The notes under the pieces are model-generated. The model was not told where the DNA came from. It ran no database searches and saw only the letters and a program-made list of their open reading frames with translations. Positions 47,697 through 54,875 of a stretch of DNA of 64,000 nt are shown here, piece by piece. The DNA comes from an uncultured Planctomycetales bacterium. GTDB taxonomy: Bacteria; Omnitrophota; Gorgyraeia; Zapsychrales; Fredricksoniimonadaceae. Location of the stretch: positions 2,745 through 66,744 of the forward strand of contig CAZOXU010000008.1 in the NCBI GenBank assembly GCA_964583975.1, read 5' to 3'. How positions within the stretch are numbered: position 1 is the stretch's first letter; each line of letters starts with the position of its first letter. The position numbers and the translations under genes are program-made.

Positions 47697-47731
47697 AAGG
47701 GGACTGTCCCCTTTTGGGGACTGTCCCTTTC
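47697..47731 (+). terminator. Rho-independent terminator with a duplicated stem (ggggactgtcccc-tttt-ggggactgtccc-ttt)
   Basis: A GC stem-loop followed by a T-run, present in two tandem copies directly after the lipopeptide ORF. Confidence 0.6.
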
Positions 47732-47824: not shown

Positions 47825-48655
47825 ATGATTATATTTGATAATTTAATTCTTTGGATCGTTCCTCTTGTTATTCTTTTTTATTTTATTTGTTTCTTAATAT
47901 TCATCTGCCCAAGTCTTCGAAAAAAGATAAAAGGGTGCCTTCCTCCCACATGTTTAGCCAAATTTGACAGTGGAGCTTTTCAAGAATCTGTAAGAACGTT
48001 TCTTCCACCAGCATTCTTTACTTTATTAATTGCTTATGCGGTATTTGGTAAAGTAAATTATATTGAAGAAAAGCTTAAGATTGATCTTTTAGCAGAACCA
48101 TGTGTTAATTCTTTGGATAGGGGTAATGGAAAACAATATTGTCTAGATTTTGCAAAGTTAATTTCTGTCCATAAAGATAATTTTTATTTAAATAAATATA
48201 TGATTGTTCAAGTTGAGAAAATTTATGCCAAGGTTTATAAAATGGGCTCAGAAACTCCAATTTATAGAGGAAATCACAAAGATACGAATGGAAATGACAT
48301 TTTAATTAGAGAAGAGGTTAACAATCTTAATTTGAGCAATATTTATGATCATTTAGGGCATTCTTTTTGGCGAAGTAGAATGGCTGCTTGTTATTTGTTG
48401 TCTGGAATTAATAATGATTTGATTAATAAACCCTTATCAGAAATTAAATGGAAAGATATATTGGGAAAATTAGTAAACTTAATAAAAGATAAAAATGAAG
48501 AGTTTGAGGTTAGGTTAATGGCTCAAATGACTTACGCGAGGTTAACTAACTTGGGAGTCCATCTTACTGAAGATGTCTTTGGGTTTGATTGGTTGGTGAA
48601 AGATTGGGACAAGAATTCAGATATAATTATAAAAAGATTGGAAAAGGAGAAATAG
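47825..48655 (+). CDS. Hypothetical membrane-anchored protein encoded by a markedly AT-rich gene
   Basis: 276 aa with an N-terminal TM helix. Codon composition is visibly more A/T-rich than its neighbours. No recognisable domain. Confidence 0.45.
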   Translation: MIIFDNLILWIVPLVILFYFICFLIFICPSLRKKIKGCLPPTCLAKFDSGAFQESVRTFLPPAFFTLLIAYAVFGKVNYIEEKLKIDLLAEPCVNSLDRGNGKQYCLDFAKLISVHKDNFYLNKYMIVQVEKIYAKVYKMGSETPIYRGNHKDTNGNDILIREEVNNLNLSNIYDHLGHSFWRSRMAACYLLSGINNDLINKPLSEIKWKDILGKLVNLIKDKNEEFEVRLMAQMTYARLTNLGVHLTEDVFGFDWLVKDWDKNSDIIIKRLEKEK

Positions 48656-48705
48656 GGTAATATTCTAGATTTTTTTAGAAAGAAATAATGAATAAAATAT
48701 TTCTT

Positions 48706-48757
48706 GAAACCTACGGCTGGCCCTTACAGATTCCTTTGGAATCTAAGCGTAGGGGTT
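48706..48757. repeat. Hairpin repeat, family C copy 1
   Basis: gaaacctacggctggcccttacagattcctttggaatctaagcgtaggggt. CCTACG pairs with CGTAGG, and the inner arm is AGATTCC / GGAATCT. Confidence 0.6.
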
Positions 48758-48764
48758 ATAGCAA

Positions 48765-49037
48765 TTGATGGATAGACATGGTAAATTTTATGTATATATT
48801 ATCGAAGACAAAAATGGGACATATTACACTGGTTACACTCAAGATGTTCAGAAACGATTAGAGTTACATCAAAAAGGTCAGGGGGCTAAGTATTTGAGAG
48901 GTAAAATGCCATTGAAGTTGGTATATGTTAAGGAATACCGATATTATAAATTAGCACTGCATGCGGAATTAAAAATTAAAAGCTATACACGAGAGAGAAA
49001 AGAAGAGCTAGTGAGAATATATGAAAATAGTAAATAA
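48765..49037 (+). CDS. GIY-YIG nuclease-family protein (short UPF0213/YhbQ-like)
   Basis: Motif KFYVYIIEDKNGTYYTGYTQDVQKRLELH is the GIY...YIG signature. 90 aa. Confidence 0.75.
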   Translation: MMDRHGKFYVYIIEDKNGTYYTGYTQDVQKRLELHQKGQGAKYLRGKMPLKLVYVKEYRYYKLALHAELKIKSYTRERKEELVRIYENSK

Positions 49038-49040
49038 TCA

Positions 49041-49095
49041 GAAACCTACGGCTGCCCCCACAGATTTGCTGAAAGCAAATCTAAGCGTGGGGGCA
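49041..49095. repeat. Hairpin repeat, family C copy 2
   Basis: gaaacctacggctgcccccacagatttgctgaaagcaaatctaagcgtgggggc. Same flanks as copy 1, with compensatory changes in the stems. Confidence 0.6.
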
Positions 49096-49098
49096 CCC

Positions 49099-50424
49099 AT
49101 GCTTATGTTTCCAGAAAAACCGAAGGTTTTCCTGGAAACATATGGGTGTGCCATGAATGAGTACGACTCCGAACTCATTCGTTCGATTCTCAAGAAAGAG
49201 AACTTTGAGTTCGTGCCCCGCGAGAAAGAGGCAGACATTGTCATGCTCAACACCTGCGCCATTCGTGAGCATGCGCACAGGAAGATCTACGGCCGTGTGC
49301 ATCAGCTGCGCCATGATCGAAAGGGCAAGCCCATCATGATTGGTTTGCTTGGCTGCATGGTGACCAACCTACGCCAGGAACTCCTAGAAGATCGGTCGCT
49401 TAAGATCGACTTCATTGCCGGGCCAGACTCGTATAAGCGTCTGCCGGATTTGATCCGCGAGGCGACTGATGATGGCGCCAAAGGTTATGATGCTACTTTA
49501 AGCGAGTTTGAAACCTATTCTGATATTACCCCGAGCCGTAAAGAAGGCATCAATGCCTGGATCGCCATCATGCGCGGCTGCAACAATTTCTGCACCTTCT
49601 GTGTGGTGCCTTACACCCGTGGCCGCGAACGTAGCCGGGATCCAAAGAATATAGTTGAGGAAGTCGAGCGGCTCGCTGCCGAGGGCTTCAAGCAGGTGAC
49701 CTTGCTGGGGCAGAACGTGAATTCCTACCGCTATGAAGACTATGATTTTGCTTATCTGATGGAAGAAGTTGCTAAGGTCAAGGGCATTGAGCGCATTCGT
49801 TTCACCTCACCGCATCCTAAGGACTATCCCGATCGATTCTTAGATGTCATGGCCAGTAACCCCAAGGTCTGCAAAAGCATTCATATCCCGCTGCAGGCTG
49901 GCAATAACAGGGTGCTTGGGCTTATGGATCGCTCGTACACTAAGGAGGAGTTTTTGGCTCTCGCCGATAAGATGAAAAAACGAATCCCAGGCGTGACCCT
50001 GACAACCGATATTATCGTAGGCTTTCCCACCGAAACCGATGAAGAGTTTGAAGATACCCTTGATGTGGTCCAGAAAGTCCAGTTTGACGTGGCTTTTACC
50101 TTTAAATACTCCGAGCGTAAAGGTACCATTGCCGCTAAGAAATACCCTGATGATGTCTCTGAGGAAACCAAGACCCAGCGTATTATGCGTTTAATTGAGA
50201 TCCAGCGAGCCATCACCTTGAAGAACAATCAGGGCTATATCGGCCGAGTTTGCGATATCTTGATTGAGCCAGCCTTGGGTGAGAATGCTCAAAACAATGT
50301 GGTTGGGCGTACCGATGGCAACCACCTGGTCATTCTGCCACAAGGACCCTATAAAATAGGCGACACCATCAAGGCGCGCATCACGGACGCCACCCCGCAT
50401 GTACTTAAAGCCATCCCAGTATAA
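49099..50424 (+). CDS. miaB: tRNA methylthiotransferase (MiaB/RimO family; radical SAM plus TRAM)
   Basis: N-terminal FLETYGCAMNEYDSE, radical-SAM motif CNNFCTFCVVP, C-terminal TRAM domain. The 49099 start is preferred because 49021-49098 is occupied by the repeat. The gene is visibly GC-richer than the rest of the window. Confidence 0.85.
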   Translation: MLMFPEKPKVFLETYGCAMNEYDSELIRSILKKENFEFVPREKEADIVMLNTCAIREHAHRKIYGRVHQLRHDRKGKPIMIGLLGCMVTNLRQELLEDRSLKIDFIAGPDSYKRLPDLIREATDDGAKGYDATLSEFETYSDITPSRKEGINAWIAIMRGCNNFCTFCVVPYTRGRERSRDPKNIVEEVERLAAEGFKQVTLLGQNVNSYRYEDYDFAYLMEEVAKVKGIERIRFTSPHPKDYPDRFLDVMASNPKVCKSIHIPLQAGNNRVLGLMDRSYTKEEFLALADKMKKRIPGVTLTTDIIVGFPTETDEEFEDTLDVVQKVQFDVAFTFKYSERKGTIAAKKYPDDVSEETKTQRIMRLIEIQRAITLKNNQGYIGRVCDILIEPALGENAQNNVVGRTDGNHLVILPQGPYKIGDTIKARITDATPHVLKAIPV

Positions 50425-50550
50425 AATACTTGTAACTTTTCTCCTCTTTGTGCGTTTAAAGGATAGAGAGAGATGAAGACCTGATTTACCTGTCCCTGCC
50501 AGCGCTGGTAGGGACAGGCGGCCAGTAACAAAGTAACGTGGAATTTAGGT

Positions 50551-51120
50551 ATGAATGACGAAGAACTCATAGTGAAGTTCTACCAAGACGACAAGGAGGC
50601 GCTCGACATGCTGTTTAAGCGTCATAAGGAAGGACTGTTCAATTTTGCTCTGCGGCTAACAGTCAATCGCGCTGATGCCGAAGATGCAGTTAGCCATTCC
50701 TTTATGACTGTCTGTGAGCGCAAATATCAGCCTGTGGCTGGGGCTAGTTTTAAGACCTGGCTTTATACGGTGGCTCGCAATTCCTGTCTTTCTAAATTTC
50801 GTCATCAGAATAAATTCTTTTCCTTATGGTCATCGAAAGATACCGAAGAAACCCAGCCGATTGATGTTGCCGACACCAAGCAATCAGCAAGTGACCATTT
50901 AAATCAGCAAGAATTATCAGCTATTGTCCAAAAAGCAGTACACCGATTGCCGGTAGAGCAAAAAGAAGCTTTATTGTTAAGAGAATATCATGGTTTTAGT
51001 TATGAAGAAATCGCCCAGGTCCTTGATTGTTCATTAGAAAAGGTTAAGGTGCTGATATTCCGTGCGCGTAATCAACTTAAAACTCTGCTTCCACCTGTGG
51101 TGCTAGAGGAGGGAAGGTAA
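50551..51120 (+). CDS. ECF-subfamily RNA polymerase sigma factor
   Basis: Sigma-70 region 2 (FNFALRLTVNRADAEDAVSHSF...TWLYTVARN) and region 4 (EYHGFSYEEIAQVL). Confidence 0.85.
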   Translation: MNDEELIVKFYQDDKEALDMLFKRHKEGLFNFALRLTVNRADAEDAVSHSFMTVCERKYQPVAGASFKTWLYTVARNSCLSKFRHQNKFFSLWSSKDTEETQPIDVADTKQSASDHLNQQELSAIVQKAVHRLPVEQKEALLLREYHGFSYEEIAQVLDCSLEKVKVLIFRARNQLKTLLPPVVLEEGR

Positions 51121-51121
51121 T

Positions 51122-52522
51122 ATGACCCACGAAAATATTAAAATCCTCATTTCTGCTTACCTCGATGGTGAAACAACACCATCTGAGAAAATACAAGTCG
51201 AAGAACATTTATCCTCCTGTGCCGAATGCCAGAAGGAGTATCAAACGTATAAGGCCATGTCTAACTCTCTCTCGAAATGGTCTAATGAACGTCTCTCTCC
51301 GGATGAAGAAATCAAGATTCATAACCACCTTCAACGAAGGAGAGAACCTATGTTTACAAAACGTAACCTCATGGCATTAGGAACAACCTTGGCATTAACC
51401 ATTATGATTGGAAGTGTAGTGCAGCAGTACACGTCAAAGAGTTATTTTGTTGGCAGAAAAGATGCATCGACAGCAGCAACTGTAGCTCGGAGTAGTTTGA
51501 TATCGACTAAGGAATATGAACCTTATTATAAAAGCGAAACGCTTGCACTTAAAGGAGAAGCTAGTACATATGCTCCTGCTATGGCTAAGGCGCAGGTATT
51601 TGACGCTGTACAGCCAGAAAGCGCATCTAATCAAGCTATGGATGCTGTCCAAAGAAAAAATATGGCCAAAGTACAAGCTCTATTTTTGAATGCGGCTCGA
51701 CAACAAAATAGGGGTGCAGCAGCAGTTGCTTTGAAATCCGCTAATAATTATTATCAAGGTAATGGAGCTGGAACTAGCTATGCAGGAGGGGTTGCTGCTT
51801 ATTATGATGTCGATGAACAAGATCGTAAAAAGATTCAAAGGGCAGGTTTGAGCCTGCAAGTTGAAAATGCCTTTAAAACAAAGTCTCAACTAACAGAATT
51901 AATGACGCAATTGAATGCCATTATCGTGAGTTCCCAATTTAATCGATCTCCTGATGGACCAGGGTATGGTGTGATGGTCTGTAAGGTGTATCCCAAAGAC
52001 TTAGAACCAGCCTTGCAGCAGATTAGAAAGTTGGGCGAGGTAGAAAATGAAAATCAAAGTTTAATGGATGTCACTGATCAGTATGCTGATGCTCACAAGA
52101 ACATGGCTCAATACCGATCTGATAAAGAACGTTTGGAAAAGTCCTTAAATAATTTTAAGCTCTTTAATCCAACAACAGATGCTGAAAAACAAAATATCCA
52201 ACAGCAAATTGAGCATACTCAAGAGCAGCTTAAAGCGCTCGAGCGTGTGATTCATTTTTACCAAGAACAAACCCAGATGAGTTTGGTGACGATTGATTAT
52301 CATGATAATTATAAAACAGTCGTTAAAGATAAAGAGGTCACTGTACAATGGAAAGAGAGACTAGCTGACAAATGGAAAACAACCGTTGATGCTTCAGTCG
52401 ATGTGTTTACTAATATTTTGTTTTCTAGCCTCGTATTGCTTTCTTATGTGGCTCCCATATTAATTTGGGTGATTGTTTTTATTATCTTGTTTTCGATTGT
52501 CCGGTTGTTTTTTAGAAAATAA
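51122..52522 (+). CDS. Putative anti-sigma factor (zinc-finger type N-terminus, TM helix, large coiled-coil extracytoplasmic domain, C-terminal TM)
   Basis: HLSSCAECQKEY matches the HxxxCxxC anti-sigma zinc motif. Starts 2 nt after the ECF sigma stop. TM segments at about 85-105 and at the C-terminus. Confidence 0.5.
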   Translation: MTHENIKILISAYLDGETTPSEKIQVEEHLSSCAECQKEYQTYKAMSNSLSKWSNERLSPDEEIKIHNHLQRRREPMFTKRNLMALGTTLALTIMIGSVVQQYTSKSYFVGRKDASTAATVARSSLISTKEYEPYYKSETLALKGEASTYAPAMAKAQVFDAVQPESASNQAMDAVQRKNMAKVQALFLNAARQQNRGAAAVALKSANNYYQGNGAGTSYAGGVAAYYDVDEQDRKKIQRAGLSLQVENAFKTKSQLTELMTQLNAIIVSSQFNRSPDGPGYGVMVCKVYPKDLEPALQQIRKLGEVENENQSLMDVTDQYADAHKNMAQYRSDKERLEKSLNNFKLFNPTTDAEKQNIQQQIEHTQEQLKALERVIHFYQEQTQMSLVTIDYHDNYKTVVKDKEVTVQWKERLADKWKTTVDASVDVFTNILFSSLVLLSYVAPILIWVIVFIILFSIVRLFFRK

Positions 52523-52719: not shown

Positions 52720-53751
52720 ATGCTAAAAACAGCGATCACACCACAACAACTTTTCGAAAAGCTCAAGGACATTAAACTTGGGGGGCAGGTCTGTGTGTAT
52801 TCCTTAAAGAAATGCGAGGAATTGGTACCCTTGATTAATGAAATTAATGAGCTCAAAGAAGAGAAGAATGCCGTTATCCTGGCACATTCCTACATTTCTC
52901 CCGAAATCATCTACGGAGTCAGTGACTTTGTGGGTGATTCTTATAAACTTTCCAAAGATGCTATCAATACCACGGCCAAGACCATTGTCTTTGTGGCGGT
53001 GCGTTTCATGGGTGAGACCGCTAAGATCCTTAATCCTCAAAAAGAAGTTTTGATTCCAGCACCATTAGACGGCTGCACCTTGGCTGACTCGATCAATGCC
53101 GCTCAAGTCCGCGAGCTGCGAAAGCAATATCCTGGTTATAGCTTTGTTTGCTACATTAATACCACGGCTGAGGTTAAGGCTGAGTGCGATGTGTGTGTTA
53201 CCTCAGCTAATGTGTATACCGTGGTTGAAAATTTCCCCAATGACAAAATATATTTCCTGCCTGATAAGTTTATGGGTGAAAACCTGCGCAATGAAATGAA
53301 GCGTAAAGGTATCAAAAAAGATATCCAATATTTCAGCGGCACCTGCTACGTGCATGAAGAATACAATATTGAAGATATCCTCAAAGTCCGTTTGGAATAT
53401 CCTAATGCTAAGATTGTCAGCCATCCAGAGTGCAACTCGGTAGTGGTTGGTAATTCTGATTTTGTCGGAAGCACCGAGCAGATGTTAGATTTTATGCGCA
53501 AAGACAAGGGCCAAGAGTTTTTGATGCTCACCGAGTGCGGGCTATCGAGTCGCTTGCAGGTGGAATTTCCTGAGAAAAAGTTGGTAGGAAGCTGCACCAT
53601 GTGCAAATATATGAAATCTAATTCATTGCAACAGATCCTTCGCGTTCTAAAATCGCCTACTGATAAAGATCGCGTGGTCTTTAGTGAAGATATTCGCTTA
53701 CGTGCCCTCAAAACCATCGAGGCCATGTTTAAGTATAATGTAACTAAATAA
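52720..53751 (+). CDS. nadA: Quinolinate synthase
   Basis: 343 aa. Motifs ILAHSY and FVGDS, and conserved Cys residues for the 4Fe-4S cluster in the C-terminal half. Confidence 0.8.
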   Translation: MLKTAITPQQLFEKLKDIKLGGQVCVYSLKKCEELVPLINEINELKEEKNAVILAHSYISPEIIYGVSDFVGDSYKLSKDAINTTAKTIVFVAVRFMGETAKILNPQKEVLIPAPLDGCTLADSINAAQVRELRKQYPGYSFVCYINTTAEVKAECDVCVTSANVYTVVENFPNDKIYFLPDKFMGENLRNEMKRKGIKKDIQYFSGTCYVHEEYNIEDILKVRLEYPNAKIVSHPECNSVVVGNSDFVGSTEQMLDFMRKDKGQEFLMLTECGLSSRLQVEFPEKKLVGSCTMCKYMKSNSLQQILRVLKSPTDKDRVVFSEDIRLRALKTIEAMFKYNVTK

Positions 53752-53774: not shown

Positions 53775-54875
53775 ATGAGTCAACAATTCGTCGAAACTCA
53801 ATTCTTTACCTTTAATGAGCTGACGCTTAAAAGCGGTATCAAGCTCGGCCCCATTACGCTTGCTTACGAAACCTACGGTAAGCTTAATGCAGATAAGTCC
53901 AATGCCATTCTTGTCTTCCACGCTTTAACCGGAGATGCTAATGCCGCAGGTCTGCATAAGGATGCTAAGACTCCAGGCTGGTGGGACCCCATGATTGGCA
54001 GCGGCCGTGCGTTTGATACGGATCGTTACTTTGTTATCTGTGCTAATGTGATTGGCGGCTGTAAAGGGTCGACCGGCCCTTCATCGATTAATCCTGCGAC
54101 CGGCAAACCCTATGGCATGAGCTTTCCTGTAATCACTATTGAAGACATGGTCAAATCTCAGAAACAATTGATTGATCATTTAGGCATTAAGAAGCTTTTG
54201 TGTGCCACGGGCGGCTCGATGGGTGGCTTAATGGCCCTCGAATGGGCTGTGCGTTATCCTGACACCCTAGATTCCGCGATATTGATTGCAGCCAACTATA
54301 AACATACAGCCCAGCAGATCGCCTTACACGAAGTCGCGAGGCAGGCCATTATGTCCGATCCCAATTGGAATAAGGGTGATTACTACGGCAAGGAATTACC
54401 AGCTCAGGGAATGGCTGTGTCGCGGATGATTGGACATATCACCTACATGAGCGAGAAGTCCATGGAGGAAAAATTTGGTCGCAAGCTGCAAGGCAAGGAG
54501 AGAGTGGGGTATGATTTCTCCCACGACTTTGAGGTTGAAAGTTATCTTCGCTATAGAGGCGCCAGCTTTGTGCAAAGATTTGATGCCAATAGCTACCTGT
54601 ATCTTTCCAAGGCCCTGGATTATTTTGACCTAAGTGAAGACCAAGATCTTTTAAAAGTGTTTAAGAAAATTAAATCCAAGATTTTGATTATTACCTTTAC
54701 CTCAGACTGGTTGTATCCATCGTATCAGAGCAAGGACATGGTTAAGGCGATGAAGGCTAATGATGTGGATGTGTCTTTTGTTGAAATCACTACTAATTAT
54801 GGGCATGATTCGTTTTTGGTTGAGATTGATGGGCAATCGAAATTAGTAAGTCATTTTTTAAATAATGTGAAGTAA
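53775..54875 (+). CDS. metX: Homoserine O-acetyltransferase
   Basis: Alpha/beta hydrolase with start LVFHALTGDA and nucleophile motif GGSMGG. 366 aa. Confidence 0.9.
   Translation: MSQQFVETQFFTFNELTLKSGIKLGPITLAYETYGKLNADKSNAILVFHALTGDANAAGLHKDAKTPGWWDPMIGSGRAFDTDRYFVICANVIGGCKGSTGPSSINPATGKPYGMSFPVITIEDMVKSQKQLIDHLGIKKLLCATGGSMGGLMALEWAVRYPDTLDSAILIAANYKHTAQQIALHEVARQAIMSDPNWNKGDYYGKELPAQGMAVSRMIGHITYMSEKSMEEKFGRKLQGKERVGYDFSHDFEVESYLRYRGASFVQRFDANSYLYLSKALDYFDLSEDQDLLKVFKKIKSKILIITFTSDWLYPSYQSKDMVKAMKANDVDVSFVEITTNYGHDSFLVEIDGQSKLVSHFLNNVK

Follow-up and report, generated by a model that had tools for sequence, protein, structure and literature searches.

Probable repeated insertion of a GIY-YIG nuclease gene and bulged hairpins at one nucleotide of miaB

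How did a minimal GIY-YIG nuclease gene come to lie between two copies of a hairpin-forming repeat, upstream of the tRNA i6A37 methylthiotransferase (MTTase) gene miaB? The question is raised by positions 47825–50424 of a 64,000-nt stretch (hereafter, the window) of contig CAZOXU010000008.1 from an uncultured bacterium of the Omnitrophota (assembly GCA_964583975.1). A sequence-only reading of this region had offered two answers: a small mobile cassette with structured ends, or an insertion hot spot into which foreign DNA, including miaB itself, had been spliced. Comparison with related loci speaks for the mobile cassette. The same miaB nucleotide has received insertions repeatedly, former 5′ ends of the gene persist as fossils, orthologous loci differ by presence or absence of the cassette, relocated cassettes retain miaB-derived ends, and reading frames continue through the inserts. 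The hairpins form a family that is restricted to, and tightly co-occurs with, one subfamily of GIY-YIG nucleases. We consider it probable, though well short of certain, that nested, site-specific insertions of a GIY-YIG/double-hairpin element replaced the 5′ end of the native miaB.

Coding fossils and hairpins upstream of miaB

Two repeat copies with a common start and end had been reported on either side of the nuclease open reading frame (ORF). Indeed, GAAACCTACGGCTG and AATCTAAGCGTRGGGG each occur exactly twice in the 64 kb, the former at 48706 and 49041, the latter at 48740 and 49078. The repeats are real; their description as one element of 52–55 nt did not stand, each copy consisting of a 14-nt coding fossil and a hairpin of 35 or 39 nt (48721–48755 and 49055–49093). 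The 14-mer encodes E-T-Y-G-C, the MiaB start, and is not hairpin sequence. A pattern scan with the 14-mer plus TAAGCGT over one genome per species returned no further hairpin copies; its matches were the first miaB codons in unrelated phyla (GAA ACC TAC GGC TGC CAA ATG AAT, or E T Y G C Q M N). The working miaB carries a recoded version, GAA ACA TAT GGG TGT, at 49135. Six-frame translation yields four occurrences of the ETYG peptide (0.4 expected), three of them at 48706, 49041 and 49135. The cysteine of E-T-Y-G-C is, we presume, the first ligand of the N-terminal Fe–S cluster.

Fossil 1 of the miaB 5′ end (48688–48719, plus strand) reads ATG AAT AAA ATA TTT CTT GAA ACC TAC GGC TG, corresponding to MNKIFLETYG(C), and breaks off directly behind the Cys-codon TG. 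From its ATG, a 26-codon ORF (48688–48768, plus strand) runs through the first hairpin to a TGA stop that overlaps the start of the nuclease gene (TGATG), an arrangement that suggests translational coupling of the two. The second fossil (49021–49054, plus strand) comprises an ATG within the 3′ end of the nuclease gene, conserved among relatives, and the 14-mer GAAACCTACGGCTG at 49041–49054, again broken after TG. MiaB homology proper (49123–50424, plus strand) begins at the Lys codon at 49123, with the junction nucleotides TG ending at 49148 in the first conserved Cys codon. The ORF 49099–50424 comprises the Pfam domains UPF0004, Radical_SAM and TRAM and matches the MiaB equivalog model TIGR01574 (465.7 bits vs. 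a cut-off of 355.3) from its residue 9 onwards. The locus thus holds one live miaB 5′ end (49125–49148) and two dead ones (48688–48719 and 49041–49054), both broken after the Cys-codon TG.

The gene between the fossils (48768–49037, plus strand) encodes a UPF0213 protein, a Slx1-like minimal catalytic domain of 89 amino acids (aa) if translation begins at ATG 48768 and of 90 aa if it begins at TTG 48765. A match to PF01541 (E 3e-16; 59.9 bits vs. a cut-off of 22.6) confirmed the 90-aa GIY-YIG ORF that had been noted between the two repeats. UPF0213 is a very large bacterial family with two nuclear magnetic resonance structures and, to our knowledge, no assigned role. The closest solved structures are likewise UPF0213 proteins (PDB 1ZG2, E 1.6e-17; 1YWL, E 1.6e-10), and Dunin-Horkawicz et al. 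place the UPF0213-type 1ywl in the Slx-1 cluster (PMC1564403). In an alignment of 10 homologues inspected by eye, YVYI, YYTG, (K/E)R and AE are invariant, i.e. the catalytic Tyr-Tyr-Arg-Glu positions are kept. In total, 288 homologues were found, the closest with 60–80% aa identity and Omnitrophota labels where the source names them. Non-synonymous divergence (dN) of 0.12–0.33, with synonymous divergence (dS) saturated between lineages, points to purifying selection on the nuclease. Neither the DNA pattern nor the protein matched viral contigs, BLAST with 48689–49160 found nothing in plasmid and phage collections, and in the literature that we searched, UPF0213 or GIY-YIG proteins were nowhere connected with miaB, mobile DNA or such elements. 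A group I intron carrying the GIY-YIG gene was rejected, as Rfam gave no match for a ribozyme core and the flanks measure only 35–55 nt.

Three bulged hairpins accompany these features. H_A1 (48721–48755, plus strand) is of a short sub-type, with outer arms CCCTTAC/GTAGGGG, inner arms AGATTCC/GGAATCT, loop TTT and a 3′ bulge AAGC at 48745–48748. H_A2 (49055–49093, plus strand) is of a long sub-type, with outer arms CCCCCAC/GTGGGGG, inner arms AGATTTGCT/AGCAAATCT, loop GAA and the 3′ bulge AAGC at 49083–49086. The third, H_B (49094–49148), has the inverted orientation and reads CACCCAT ATGTTTCCAGGAAAACC TTC GGTTTTTCTGGAAACAT AAGC ATGGGTG on the minus strand; found as an inverted repeat over the miaB start (49104–49142) and extended from there, it abuts H_A2 with zero spacer. 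On the plus strand, H_B consists of an antisense copy of the coding arm (49094–49121), which contains ATG 49099 and ATG 49105, and of the working miaB codons K-V-F-L-E-T-Y-G-(C) (49125–49148), the unbulged minus-strand arm being the antisense of the latter. The sequence-only reading had thus correctly recognized two hairpins and missed the third, oppositely oriented one. Its claim of perfect self-complementarity needs slight correction: both copies fold as described, and copy 1 contains one T·G pair. Folding energies are −22.1 kcal/mol (z −3.0) for the first copy and −31.6 kcal/mol (z −6.1) for the second, with 0 of 200 shuffles as good in either case; jointly, H_A2 and H_B fold at −56.8 kcal/mol (z −7.7).

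Members of the hairpin family share a 7-bp outer stem, an inner stem of the form AGRTTT.../...AAAYCT and a 4-nt bulge ANRC. In the three window hairpins, the outer arms measure 7 nt, the inner arm starts with A(G/T)RTTT and ends in AAAYNT, and the bulge is AAGC. An alignment of 17 sequences from nine lineages (10 in plus, 7 in minus orientation) has 97.1% of its cells paired; in 12 of the 14 pairs, both partners vary. None of 500 shuffles matched this pairing, and sliding the partner by 1–3 columns left at most 52.5% of cells paired. Selection for structure, as suggested earlier from the two flanking copies, is therefore upheld. The stem differences between these two copies had been taken for compensatory changes, a view that we abandon: the short (AGATTCC) and long (AGATTTG/AGTTTT) sub-types each have counterparts in other genomes, and both occur in the related locus L007, so that the differences in the window are old and do not reflect compensatory drift after a recent local duplication. 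Pairing of the H_B arms is maintained via synonymous changes in miaB, with 180 of 184 arm cells paired across eight lineages and 8 of 23 positions covarying, five of these at third codon positions.

A covariance model built from the 17-hairpin alignment (R1, with H_A1 among the training sequences) recovered only the three hairpins of this locus in the window; the next match scored 17 bits. Scores on the own vs. the other strand were 45.4 (plus) vs. 13.1 (minus) bits for H_A1, 51.8 (plus) vs. 24.1 (minus) for H_A2 and 47.3 (minus) vs. 17.4 (plus) for H_B. Over 518 kb of related loci, all R1 matches with E < 0.01 fell at miaB-type junctions, four of them outside the training set, and L106 and L109 scored as well. 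The hairpins are best read as deriving from an inverted duplication of miaB 5′ coding DNA. Given this derivation and the occurrence of the same asymmetric hairpin in both orientations, we place their origin at the DNA level. As to RNA structures, a mimic of the tRNA-Phe anticodon arm (loop GAA) was discarded on account of the UUU loop of the sister hairpin and the free variation of loops, a K-turn upon inspection for want of G·A pairs adjoining the bulge, and intrinsic terminators for want of a T-run 3′ of the hairpins.

In L109, a locus from Desantisbacteria with four hairpins in 1.4 kb, the hairpin behaves as a dispersed element. One copy (L109:2804–2841) lies in frame inside an MTTase ORF, between the UPF0004 and radical-SAM domains. 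Another (L109:3530–3563) lies at the 3′ end of that ORF, which terminates within the hairpin and in which no TRAM domain was detected, and a further copy (L109:3611–3645) sits just before a flp pilin gene.

Insertion and translation across related loci

The GIY-YIG subfamily was found in 12 lineages (Omnitrophota-like and Desantisbacteria; related loci carry L-numbers). In eight of them, the nuclease gene lies immediately upstream of miaB or another MTTase gene, with unrelated outer neighbours. Nuclease gene and hairpin co-occur in 11 of the 12 lineages, compared to 1 of 73 miaB loci free of the GIY-YIG gene (Fisher p 7e-12). All 10 plus-orientation hairpins of our junction table begin right after T(A/T)YGGNTG, at the nucleotide from which the working miaB continues with CCAGATGAA. 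The insertion point is hence identical in independent lineages, and in the table, duplicated flanking sequence is limited to the coding fossil. Presence and absence can be compared in L007 and L026, orthologous loci from the same sample that share 88% nucleotide identity in an upstream DUF1761 gene and 89.6% in miaB, and differ by a cassette of ~450 nt. In L017, L019 and L106, the cassette resides away from any miaB body and keeps miaB-derived arms, with TG ends in L017 and L106; in L017, the nuclease ORF occupies the loop of one hairpin, with perfect arms of 14 + 7 bp on either side. L014 has the nuclease gene joined directly to miaB, without hairpins.

The duplication of a gene terminus seen in the window recurs in L010, L105, L017 and L025. 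Fossil miaB starts precede the nuclease gene in L010 (..LETFGC*), L105 (MKKVFLENYGW) and L017 (KIFIETYG). The fossil of L025 (MNKIYLEFYV) is homologous to that of the window and is followed by one hairpin without a nuclease gene, the product that would be expected from recombination between two directly repeated hairpins with deletion of the gene in between.

A second junction type was noticed at window 48706, L044:2929, L105:2973 and L106:3394, where the fossil ends in ...TAYGGNTG followed by GC, changing Cys to Trp (YGW), instead of by CCCC, which hints at either two insertion variants or a shared repair scar. At L019:3949–5132, a SIR2-family gene takes the place of miaB, its 5′ end joined in frame to a cassette that keeps the AATACGGCTG fossil, suggesting that the element can capture other gene starts. 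At L041:173–1895, the 3′ end of another MTTase gene (448 aa, N-terminus ..FYTLGC..) and the GIY-YIG gene overlap, and the miaB 1.1 kb downstream carries the hairpins in frame. A cassette-free sub-clade (L027, L029, L032, L034, L036 and L072) harbors a CCGATGAAYGARTAYGA copy in the leader, 100–150 nt upstream of the ETYGC codons. This copy equals the miaB codons (C)QMNEYD, begins exactly at the junction between TG and CC, contains the mini-ORF MNEYDF* and, in L072, is adjoined by an antisense copy. It may be a further fossil left by turnover of the 5′ end; alternatively, it may encode a leader peptide with many Tyr and Phe codons, the codons that MiaB-modified tRNAs read.

A rival reading is a single-strand ‘peel-and-paste’ transposon of IS200/IS605-like build, with the GIY-YIG enzyme as the catalyst. 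Such an element would bear direct subterminal hairpins, insert 3′ of the octamer TAYGGNTG, carry the same octamer at its right end and cause no target duplication. H_A1 and H_A2, which flank the nuclease ORF and share the plus orientation, are in line with this view, as are the exact left junction of the 10 listed copies, the right ends of L017 and L106, which finish in ...TATGGGTG, the missing duplication beyond the coding fossil, and the existence of ORF-less derivatives (window 49055–49148, L025 and L041). We nevertheless judge it unlikely. Pfam searches of the 20 neighbouring ORFs, covering 10 kb on either side, found no transposase, HUH/Y1 (Y1_Tnp) enzymes included; copies in the Omnitrophota-like loci do not extend beyond a single locus; and the additional L109 copies lack a preceding octamer. 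We also know of no GIY-YIG transposase. One relative, L022, does contain an IS200/RAYT-type Y1 transposase gene (PF01797; L022:2653–3309) ~700 nt upstream of its GIY-YIG cassette. This may be coincidence, and the cassette of the window has none nearby.

Where translation of miaB starts is a related question, which the sequence-only reading had answered with 49099. ATG 49099 and ATG 49105 both lie inside the −56.8 kcal/mol double hairpin, and so does the G-run of the H_A2 3′ arm, the only Shine–Dalgarno-like sequence before ATG 49099. As all three are buried, we do not accept 49099 as an established start. The ORF 49021–50424 is open through the hairpins and in frame with miaB, adding to the doubt, and we regard translational entry from 49021 as at least as likely as from 49099. 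In all 11 lineages compared, the ORF from the conserved ATG in the GIY-YIG 3′ end stays open over fossil and hairpins. In the window, L010, L014, L039 and L109, it joins the downstream gene in frame; in L017, it joins a miaB-derived fragment followed by a stop, and in L019 the SIR2 gene; in L007 (ATGA), L022 (TAATG), L046 (TAAGATG) and L106 (ATGA), it stops on the downstream start. L025 has the same read-through layout, from the fossil ATG (TTGA). In the hairpin-free L014, miaB starts at an ATG inside the nuclease 3′ end (MKIANKVFLETYGC), the position at which fossil 2 is found in the window. An intron, intein or translational bypass that would join fossil 1 to miaB was rejected in view of the stop that ends the fossil ORF after 26 codons, the in-frame starts of miaB itself and the distance of ~430 nt.

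These translational features could also belong to a conserved GIY-YIG–miaB operon with a structured mRNA leader, in which cis-regulatory hairpins hide the Shine–Dalgarno sequence and start, ribosomes arriving from upstream translate miaB, and nothing is mobile today. Besides the buried starts and G-run, this account can draw on the upstream ORFs that end exactly on the miaB start (L007, L022, L046, L106 and L025), on arm covariation at synonymous sites, on the same 17-nt gene overlap in Omnitrophota-like L014 and Desantisbacteria L109, and on an upstream sense copy, whose pairing with the antisense arm could give an alternative structure like that of the L007 fold. It leaves unexplained the fossil starts that precede the nuclease gene and have an ATG of their own, the cassette-free orthologue, the cassettes at SIR2 or other loci with miaB-derived arms, and the hairpin inside the L109 ORF. 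The same asymmetric hairpin in both orientations is a further difficulty, as is the lack of any Rfam family match, either for the whole window at the gathering threshold or for 48600–49200 at E ≤ 10. As an account of the entire locus, the RNA leader is therefore rather improbable; as the hairpins’ present-day role, it can coexist with mobility.

The nested insertions that we favour would each have entered at precisely one point of E-T-Y-G-C, directly behind the Cys-codon TG. The first would have brought H_A1, the minimal nuclease gene and a replacement miaB start overlapping the nuclease 3′ end, stranding the original start at 48688–48719 as fossil 1. The second, a 94-nt ORF-less double hairpin (49055–49148; H_A2 in plus, H_B in minus orientation), would have entered the same site of that replacement start, stranding it as fossil 2 (49041–49054). 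Since the last 24 nt of this second insertion re-encode K-V-F-L-E-T-Y-G, MiaB would have remained intact. Downstream expression would be kept by translation from upstream starts through the hairpins, namely from the fossil ATG for the nuclease and from ATG 49021 for miaB. To initiate such events, the nuclease may cut cassette-free miaB alleles, or hairpin DNA, at or near the junction, and the cassette may then be copied in by repair or transposition; in the case of repair, the miaB body would provide one homology arm and the short fossil the other. The ORF-less double hairpin would represent a non-autonomous derivative mobilised in trans, and the hairpins may by now also couple translation. 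The element as a whole looks selfish, re-encoding the start of the gene that it invades.

Several observations weigh against this course of events. With only three local hairpins, the window differs from typical dispersed mobile palindromes, and the covariation could stem from RNA-level selection or arm-to-arm gene conversion instead of from a role in mobility. The ETYGC junction of the working miaB is not recoded relative to empty alleles, leaving escape from re-cutting unaccounted for. Saturated synonymous sites between lineages make the events old, and presence and absence could partly reflect losses. The 89-aa protein is a catalytic domain only; by Pfam and PDB matches, it has no sequence-specific DNA-binding module like that of I-TevI or I-BmoI, and we know of no nuclease activity or cleavage site for any UPF0213 protein. 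Finally, pairwise identities of GIY-YIG and MiaB proteins are weakly positively correlated (rho 0.23, p 0.23), a test that is underpowered and compatible with co-inheritance. A recoded ETYGC site as immunity to the nuclease had been considered and was dropped, cassette-bearing and empty alleles showing no consistent difference.

More tentatively, and with less confidence than we place in the insertions themselves, some UPF0213/Slx1-like mini-nucleases may mobilise hairpin-ended elements of a class not described before. These elements would combine a structure-specific nuclease with bulged double hairpins mimicking the target gene’s 5′ coding sequence, insert at one nucleotide of an essential Cys codon, and re-encode the N-terminus and have it translated through so that the host gene survives. 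ORF-less double hairpins like 49055–49148 would spread as non-autonomous partners, making the system a possible GIY-YIG counterpart of REPIN/RAYT. For at least one UPF0213 subfamily, the locus and its relatives suggest a possible role as selfish nucleases that go with one defined DNA site and one defined hairpin. If true, this would be a mobile element of a bacterial chromosome that spares an important gene without splicing, by means of a replacement gene end and read-through translation. For annotation, the locus explains the false or doubtful N-terminal extension that gene callers give MiaB here, and illustrates that short ‘repeats’ which are coding fossils can mislead repeat analysis.

Base composition and neighbouring genes

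Could the locus instead be a place where foreign genes accumulate? The abrupt double change in composition on which this idea had been based, from an AT-rich ORF to a GC-rich miaB, is borne out. In 500-nt windows, GC content reaches its minimum of 27.4% at 48001–48500 and its maximum of 49–51% at 49001–50000, around a mean of ~40%. Ranking 64 non-overlapping ORFs by GC content at third codon positions (GC3) places ORF 47825–48655 lowest (0.243, z −2.1) and miaB highest by far (0.585, z +3.9), with nadA and metX next-highest (0.48 and 0.50); the GIY-YIG ORF has a GC3 of 0.278. The AT-rich ORF (276 aa, plus strand) is an upstream neighbour outside the cassette. It has no Pfam or NCBIfam match and, among 5.8 billion proteins, retrieved only itself, qualifying it as an ORFan; different genes occupy this position in relatives.

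For miaB, the data point the other way. Its synteny with nadA (52720–53751) and metX (53775–54875) is kept, and the closest relatives are the same for all three genes, with L025 first (77, 82 and 86% aa identity), followed by L026–L028. Moreover, miaB exceeds its flanks in GC content in most relatives, whether the cassette is present or absent. By these affinities, miaB is a native gene. Its foreign origin, as put forward in the sequence-only reading, was rejected, that reading’s own test of phylogenetic congruence having gone against it. The contrast in composition is one between a core gene and accessory genes and reaches an extreme in this genome.

An insertion hot spot or integron-like site, at which a foreign AT-rich ORF and a GC-rich miaB were spliced in between attC-like hairpins, is consequently very improbable. 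In its favour, the two genes mark the extremes of composition in the window, relatives vary in the region upstream of miaB, and the AT-rich gene is an ORFan. Against this stand the native affinities and clade-wide GC richness of miaB, and the position of the hairpins, which lie to either side of the nuclease gene and enclose neither the AT-rich gene nor miaB. The earlier reading had itself remarked that no integrase is nearby, rightly so, as none was found within 10 kb on either side; its loose likeness to attC-bounded cassettes fails on this count and on the lack of GTTRRRY (R′/R″) core sites. A search of the window for tRNA and tmRNA genes found none.

Other features of the surroundings concern neither nuclease nor hairpins. 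Between miaB and nadA, the window encodes an extracytoplasmic function (ECF) sigma factor and a zf-HC2/DUF4349 anti-sigma pair (50551–52522); nadA directly follows miaB in most relatives, and the sigma gene is common only to L029, L035 and L050, which makes this stretch a second variable spot of the locus. The sigma factor, 189 aa long, led to an identical Logan contig of 5.2 kb. Two tandem copies of the palindrome GGGGACTGTCCC(C), 17 nt apart, lie at 47699–47730, just 3′ of a 37-aa lipoprotein-like ORF, and are its only two matches within the window. As their loop is too small to form a hairpin, they rather resemble part of a terminator or a site bound by a dimeric protein. Between miaB and the sigma-factor gene, at 50489–50518, lies a near-perfect palindrome of 30 nt (CCTGTCCCTGCCAGC/GCTGGTAGGGACAGG) that lacks a T-run and has the core GGGACAG/CTGTCCC in common with the 47.7-kb palindromes. 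On the scale of the entire window (1–64000), 59 of 64 long ORFs are on the plus strand and the cumulative GC skew climbs almost monotonically, so that the window probably lies within one replichore with strong gene co-orientation.

Comparison with known systems

The locus resembles several known systems in part. REP/REPIN sequences with their RAYT proteins share the short imperfect palindromes, the conserved bulge, the inverted adjacent pairs (here H_A2 and H_B) and the flanking of a co-occurring single-copy nuclease-type gene. In contrast to these, the protein described here is a GIY-YIG and not an HUH/Y1 enzyme, one hairpin arm is functional coding sequence, and copies are not numerous and dispersed, with three in the 64-kb window at one locus and four within 1.4 kb in L109. 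IS200/IS605 elements likewise have subterminal direct hairpins, insert 3′ of a fixed short motif and create no target duplication; they differ from the present case, in which the neighbouring ORFs include no TnpA (Y1 HUH) and the genomic target is a single one. Integron attC sites have in common the imperfect hairpins, extrahelical bases, variable loop and adjacent small ORF, whereas the locus has no IntI, no GTTRRRY/RYYYAAC cores and no cassette array.

Rickettsia palindromic elements are in-frame selfish palindromes and thus provide a precedent for inserts tolerated within reading frames, as seen here in the ORF that stays open in 11 of 11 lineages and in the copy inside the L109 MTTase ORF. 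There is no sequence relationship to them, however, and the present hairpins go with one particular nuclease gene and one particular target codon. A parallel is offered by the double-hairpin elements in mitochondria of Allomyces and other fungi (Paquin et al. 2000, as cited in PMC3787672), small mobile units of two abutting hairpins near endonuclease ORFs; they are organellar, unrelated in sequence and not known to re-encode the terminus of a host gene. Endonuclease-mediated gene hybrids are referred to for fungal mitochondria in the same source (PMC3787672).

The nearest known kind is the free-standing homing-endonuclease gene that makes such hybrids with a copy of the end of the invaded gene. 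Allomyces atp6/orf360 and T4 seg/mob are free-standing homing-endonuclease genes that carry the invaded gene’s terminus. With these and the mobile endonuclease ORFs of Glomus mitochondrial DNA, the locus shares a nuclease ORF beside a highly conserved coding site, an insert that supplies a functional gene end and leaves the native end as a fossil, and close relatives that differ by presence or absence. It departs from them in its bacterial chromosomal host, in the replacement of the 5′ and not the 3′ end, in a nuclease that consists of an 89-aa UPF0213/Slx1-like domain and lacks the DNA-binding module of I-TevI-type enzymes, and in the combination of bulged double hairpins with read-through translation. 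What sets the locus apart from known gene hybrids is therefore its bacterial chromosomal setting, the replacement of a 5′ end, a minimal Slx1-like nuclease, REPIN-like double hairpins and translation through the insert.

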